Part shown: one piece after another, positions 1 to 140 of the stretch
How the letters are laid out: every line of letters begins with the position of its first letter
Position numbering within the stretch: the first letter of the stretch is position 1
Origin: a virus
Taxonomy: Duplodnaviria; Heunggongvirae; Uroviricota; Caudoviricetes
Virus record (IMG/VR): IMGVR_UViG_2778261574_000003
DNA length: 4,715 bases
Direction: 5' to 3' (one strand)
Translations under genes and position numbers: made by a program
Notes under the pieces: model-generated
The model's input: only the letters and a program-made list of their open reading frames with translations
Databases searched by the model: none
Told to the model about the DNA's origin: nothing

Positions 1-62
1 ACGATGATCTGGCAGCCTGAGTTCACAGATAAAACACTCTCCAGGAAACCCGGGGCGGTTCA
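1..62 (+). mobile_element. Right end of an IS3-family insertion sequence (IS629/IS3411-like), continuing beyond the left window edge
   Basis: Plus frame 3..20 reads ...DDLAA then TGA, as expected for the C-terminus of an IS3-family OrfB transposase. The element ends ...CCCGGGGCGGTTCA at 62, i.e. 5'-TGAACCGCCCCGGG... on the minus strand, a typical IS3-family terminal inverted repeat (TG...CA). Rz homology stops exactly here. Family assignment is from recalled IS629-type termini, not a search. Confidence 0.55.
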
Positions 63-140
63 GTAATGATTAACAGCCCATGACAGGCAGACGATGATGC
101 AGATAACCAGAGCGGAGATAATCGCGGTTACTCTGTTCAT
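60..140 (-). pseudogene. rzpD: Rz i-spanin, 5' fragment of 26 codons, truncated by the IS end
   Basis: ATG at 140..138 overlaps the endolysin stop (ATGA). Translation [26 protein letters not shown] matches the N-terminal membrane anchor of lambda/DLP12 Rz, then TGA at 62..60 is supplied by the first bases of the IS repeat. The rest of Rz and the embedded Rz1 are not in the window. Confidence 0.8.

Follow-up and report, generated by a model that had tools for sequence, protein, structure and literature searches.

The nmpC gene of the DLP12 prophage in E. coli K-12 is disrupted by IS5 (nmpC::IS5). IS629 comes from Shigella sonnei, and IS1203 from E. coli O111:H-. Together with IS3411 these are isoforms of a 1310-bp element of the IS3 family that produces duplications of 3-4 bp, and 62% of the IS629 copies in O157:H7 sit in prophages (PMC3271280). 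Across four O157:H7 genomes the duplications match at only 21 of the 47 IS629 sites, and deletions mediated by ISs are a familiar event in O157:H7 (PMC3271280). In phage lambda, the transmembrane domain of the spanin Rz comprises residues 1-24. Lysis fails when a nonsense mutation falls anywhere in the periplasmic domain, up to codon 152, and cells that lack either spanin subunit end as spheres enclosed by the outer membrane (PMC5295617).

The whole stretch of DNA that we analysed (the window, 4715 nt) can be set beside each of these systems. Its lysis genes keep the order holin, endolysin, Rz and the ATGA overlap known from phage 21, from DLP12 (rzpD/rzoD) and from lambda (Rz/Rz1). Its Rz reading frame is identical to that of RzpD (WP_001082747.1) over the first 26 codons, but here the gene is a pseudogene and Rz1 is not contiguous with it. 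The DNA that adjoins codon 26 shares with the IS629/IS1203/IS3411 group the terminal 62 nt of IS1203-family copies, the TGAACCGCCCCGGG terminus, the DDLAA-stop and a location in a prophage gene, although only the right end of the element is seen here. The pile-up of ISs and the inactivation of prophage genes are the same as in IS-hit lambdoid prophages of O157 (IS629, ISEc8). Compared with K-12 DLP12, both the target gene and the position are different, and the porin gene in the window is intact. We conclude that this Q-to-lysis region of a lambda-like prophage very probably has a 1310-bp element of the IS629/IS1203 group within Rz, after codon 26, and would be a spanin null.

Gene layout of the window

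The window belongs to a lambda-like E. coli prophage and runs from the early right region through Q to the lysis genes. The lysis cassette is of the phage-21 type, and transcription is from the minus strand. Genes were called from the sequence and a reading of its open reading frames, from Pfam and from annotated relatives. The PGAP names of the homologues are quuD for Q, essD for the holin gene, rrrD for the endolysin gene and rzpD for Rz.

1-62, plus strand: right end of a 1310-bp IS3-family element, IS629/IS1203/IS3411 group (62/62 to full copies)
60-62, minus strand: TGA stop of the Rz' frame, contributed by the IS inverted repeat, which has 5'-TGA at its tip (direct reading)
63-140, minus strand: Rz' (rzpD type), an i-spanin gene cut down to its first 26 codons; all 78 nt agree with rzpD in ATCC 11775
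137-634, minus strand: endolysin, phage-21-type, RrrD-like lysozyme of 165 aa, intact (PF00959, E = 1.3e-45)
634-849, minus strand: holin, phage-21-type class II, EssD-like, 71 aa, intact (PF04971, E = 2e-35)
1438-2520, plus strand: OmpC/NmpC-like porin of 360 aa, intact, between Q and the holin
2709-3092, minus strand: Q antiterminator (homologue named quuD by PGAP)
3178-3318, minus strand: ylcG
3315-3677, minus strand: rusA
About 3698-3884, minus strand: DUF1364 remnant, between rusA and ninX
3885-4226, minus strand: ninX
4229-4405, minus strand: ninE
4402-4653, minus strand: 3' part of dam (PF05869, profile positions 92-167 of 169 only), 5' half cut off
4654-4715, plus strand: left end of a probable IS66-family element (ISEc23-like), 62 nt; same end in the related loci L003 and L005

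The closest loci are 98-99% identical to the window. In intact relatives the DNA beyond the endolysin gene continues with Rz/Rz1, bor/iss and then the terminase and head genes; the window does not reach this structural half. Exact-protein alleles were looked up in an assembly index, where that of the dam fragment occurs in 447 blocks, that of RusA in 2570 and that of Q in 63. The porin gene runs antisense to late transcription, and the exact allele of its protein has an extremely wide distribution (7500 blocks). The DUF1364 remnant has a counterpart at this spot in otherwise intact relatives, where the annotation calls it a pseudogene with a truncated N-terminus, so this deletion is old and common to them. 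An Rfam scan of the window returned no match, and a scan of the window for promoters and terminators stayed at or below shuffle expectation.

The IS end and the truncated Rz gene

Window positions 1-62 are identical, at 62 of 62 positions, to the last 62 nt of a 1310-bp IS in six fetched loci (L001, L003, L004, L027, L036 and L037). There are seven such matches, L001 holding two copies, of which one was partly fetched. One full copy, at positions 1753-3062 of L001, has the duplication GCT on both flanks; its gene is annotated 'IS3 family transposase, programmed frameshift', and an AL1L pseudoknot is marked in it. The copies in L036 (O157:H7) and L037 (O111:H8) carry the PGAP label 'IS3-like element IS1203 family transposase', and in L027 the corresponding transposase product carries the Pfam domains HTH_Tnp_1 and rve.

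A first-pass annotation of the window, made from its letters, had seen an IS3-family terminal repeat read on the minus strand from position 62 and, before it on the plus strand, an ORF end of the DDLAA-stop type. Both were correctly recognized, and positions 1-62 do match an IS. The codons GAT GAT CTG GCA GCC TGA at 3-20 are the last five of the transposase and its stop; window position 20 is position 3020 of L001, where the annotated transposase CDS ends. The right terminal inverted repeat covers approximately bases 38-62 and ends in ...GGTTCA; its reverse complement begins TGAACCGCCCCGGG, and the reverse complement of 39-62 is TGAACCGCCCCGGGTTTCCTGGAG. Left and right terminal repeats of the full IS copy are the same at 23 of the first 25 positions. 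Since full copies with this right end are about 4% apart from one another (L001 type versus O157 type), the 62 nt appear to assign the end to the IS629/IS1203/IS3411 group and not to one isoform.

On the Rz side, 5,426 complete E. coli genomes were searched by megablast with window 1-700. Positions 63-700 are present in one piece, at 100% identity, in many genomes with an intact rzpD, and all such matches begin at base 63. That every match starts there is far beyond chance and sets the breakpoint at exactly 62/63. The central claim of the first-pass annotation, that the end of an IS3-family element truncates Rz at codon 26, is therefore upheld by the IS match and the breakpoint together, and the reference Rz sequence stops at 62/63 instead of continuing leftward.

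The stop codon of the endolysin gene (139-137) and the ATG of Rz (140-138) overlap as ATGA on the minus strand, the coupling that had been proposed. From this ATG onward, 78 of 78 nt agree with the intact rzpD of E. coli ATCC 11775 (L002; WP_001082747.1). The next base differs, L002 reading CGT GAT AAC (R D N) and the window TGA ACC GCC; the end of Rz' thus reads ...AAT CAT TAC TGA ACC, with TAC as codon 26. Because the IS starts with 5'-TGA, in frame after this codon, the IS itself provides the Rz stop.

Rz' corresponds to RzpD residues 1-26 and includes an 18-residue hydrophobic stretch, the N-terminal transmembrane anchor, so the anchor was rightly said to be kept. The Pfam domain PF03245 (Phage_lysis) spans residues 29-153 of the intact 153-aa Rz homologue, and none of it is left in the window. 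In the intact relative Rz1 is embedded in Rz, in the +1 frame, with its start near nt 220 of Rz; this is about 142 nt past the breakpoint, which puts Rz1 wholly outside the window. The separation of the periplasmic domain and Rz1 from the Rz start, also part of the first-pass annotation, agrees with this. As judged from its reading frame, Rz in the window is a gene fragment or pseudogene that lacks the periplasmic domain and a contiguous Rz1. Exact-protein look-up of the 30-aa Rz' ORF with a GTG start found no record.

Other members of the prophage family also show irregular Rz annotation. In five relatives (L015, L025, L026, L028 and L042) Rz1 (60 aa, PF06085) is called between the endolysin gene and bor but Rz is absent from the calls, and in L003 rzpD is annotated as frameshifted. 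These calls suggest that Rz may often carry small damaging mutations in this prophage family.

The second IS end and the origin of the Rz junction

The opposite end of the window is also an IS boundary. Positions 4654-4715, which open with GTAAGCG (GTAAGCGTAAACTGACC...), are probably the left terminus of an ISEc23-like element of the IS66 family. These terminal 62 nt match ISEc23-family copies at 61/62 in L003 and 62/62 in L005, and tnpA and tnpB follow the terminus in both; the L003 copy has an 8-bp duplication, CATGAATG. At 4653/4654, within dam, relatives read ...gacggtagtt/ATGCTTG (the slash marks the boundary) and the window switches to the IS. What is kept of this gene, a phage N6-adenine methyltransferase, is its C-terminal part of about 83 codons. 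The junction of dam with the IS66-family element is absent from the 5,426 complete E. coli genomes. A composite transposon formed by the two ISs was considered and rejected, as they belong to different families.

Several public draft contigs (L010-L015) end 0-2 nt upstream of an internal ATG of dam, at window 4650, and thus 1-3 nt from the IS66 boundary. Their shared ends are probably due to selection by the exact 82-aa product; a common repeat or mosaic boundary is possible.

Exactly 62 nt of IS stand at each end of the window, like the k-1 overlap of a de Bruijn graph. The window is therefore probably a complete contig of a short-read assembly that breaks off in a collapsed repeat on either side, perhaps with k = 63. 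As both ends are then k-1 overlaps with collapsed repeats, leftward extension is not feasible from the contig alone.

Simple insertion is the likeliest origin of the Rz junction because all five full IS copies in the fetched relatives carry direct duplications of 3-4 bp (GCT, GAT, CAC, GTAC and TAT). Three of these five belong to members of this prophage family, one in ninE (L003), one in ninX (L004) and one downstream of Rz (L001). IS copies in relatives are also found within Q, and the endolysin gene of L004 is broken by another IS3-family element, not the one seen here. We consider it likely that the element in the window arrived by simple transposition with a 3-4 bp duplication and that the distal part of Rz, with Rz1, is on a neighbouring contig. 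The right inverted repeat of the IS faces the Rz start, and such a transposition would have duplicated GTA or GTAA (plus strand), which corresponds to codon 26 (TAC). The distal Rz/Rz1 sequence and then bor/iss would follow on the other side of the IS, which is where Rz1 would be if it is still present. The expected far-side junction would read ...ATCACGGTA(A) joined directly to TGAACCGCCCCGGG, and the expected end of the partner contig ...GGTAATGGCGTTATCACGGTA(A) joined directly to TGAACCGCCCCGGGAATCC.

Both junctions were sought in sequence collections. Neither 1-700 nor 1-4715, used as megablast queries on the 5,426 complete E. coli genomes, matched in a single piece across the near junction (62/63); the top matches with 'full coverage' are split in two, the IS lying elsewhere in those genomes. 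Exact-pattern scans found the near junction in none of the GTDB species representatives, JGI metagenome contigs and IMG/VR, and the predicted far junction, with a duplication of either 3 or 4 bp allowed, in neither the GTDB species representatives nor the JGI metagenome contigs. Ten places with the Q allele, among its 63 blocks, also lack the Rz-IS junction.

The main competitor of simple insertion is an IS-mediated deletion, inversion or other rearrangement, brought about when a pair of IS629-type copies recombines or when an adjacent deletion occurs. Such an event would have removed distal Rz and Rz1, perhaps together with bor/iss and the packaging genes, or placed them elsewhere in the genome. 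The low proportion of IS629 sites with matching duplications in the four O157:H7 genomes (21/47; PMC3271280) implies that IS-bounded rearrangements are common there and is in favour of such an event, as is the second, different IS that bounds the other end, a sign of an IS-rich genome and of prophage decay. None of the searched collections, moreover, contains the predicted far-side junction, but this says little, since the near junction, which is certain to exist, is likewise missing. Given the clean 3-4 bp duplications at five of five full copies in the fetched relatives, we regard a rearrangement as a serious but rather unlikely origin.

It is highly improbable that positions 1-62 are a chance likeness, a solo IS remnant or a MITE-like fragment. 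The visible IS stretch is only 62 nt long, but chance is ruled out by identity at all of these positions, which include the C-terminal codons and stop of the transposase. That the contig breaks here implies further copies of the sequence in its genome of origin, which an active multicopy IS would be expected to have, and a truncated IS would cut Rz equally. Least credible of these is an assembly or chimera artefact with Rz intact in the real genome. In its favour, both window ends lie inside repeats, with 62 nt of IS at each, where short-read assemblies are least reliable. The join, however, is exactly where the IS inverted repeat has its final base (...GGTTCA), as transposition gives and unlike a random chimera. 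Contigs normally overrun a real repeat boundary by k-1 bases when k-mers span the junction, and the IS66 end independently joins at the first base of GTAAGCG.

Lysis cassette and expected phenotype

The holin and endolysin genes are intact, as had been noted from the sequence: both are full-length, and their products are identical to proteins of relatives with whole cassettes. The matches to PF04971 (holin) and PF00959 (lysozyme) cover the full profiles, and the two genes stand in tandem downstream of Q. The endolysin protein is identical in four fetched loci (L002, L008, L010 and L025) and the holin protein in 14. The hydrophobic N-terminus of the endolysin suggests signal-anchor-release behaviour.

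By analogy with the lambda mutants, the 26-residue Rz' would be a null spanin allele. Translation of Rz would halt at the TGA of the IS and give a 26-residue peptide consisting of the membrane anchor only. Lacking the periplasmic coiled-coil domain, this peptide would neither bind Rz1 nor allow the inner membrane to fuse with the outer one. After induction, holin and endolysin should still make the inner membrane permeable and break down the cell wall. The induced cells would then be inclined to stop as fragile spheres enclosed by the outer membrane, which would lyse only under shear or at low concentrations of divalent cations. The further statement of the first-pass annotation, that the prophage would be defective only in the outer-membrane step of lysis, exceeds the data, since a second IS lies in dam and the structural half of the prophage is outside the window.

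Q, the porin, the holin and the endolysin are all kept intact, and one may ask whether the spanin knockout is a retained and selected state. If true, the locus would be a domesticated spanin-less cassette, whose lysis would be contained (spheroplasting or release of vesicles or cargo) and not explosive. We think this very unlikely. Contigs of 2-5 kb account for 19 of the 63 blocks with this Q allele, which could mean that the configuration recurs in a sequenced lineage.

The insertion after Rz codon 26 is a new site, found in none of the searched collections, and not a new kind of feature. The case is one of textbook IS accumulation in a lambdoid prophage and of ordinary prophage decay, with little importance beyond annotation. 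For assembly, it is useful in scaffolding to know that both contig ends are repeat boundaries. For the biology of the prophage, an i-spanin pseudogene and at least two IS hits (in Rz and dam) help in judging whether particles can be released. The build-up of IS629-type elements in the genes of lambdoid prophages is a well-documented route of decay and of strain diversification in E. coli.
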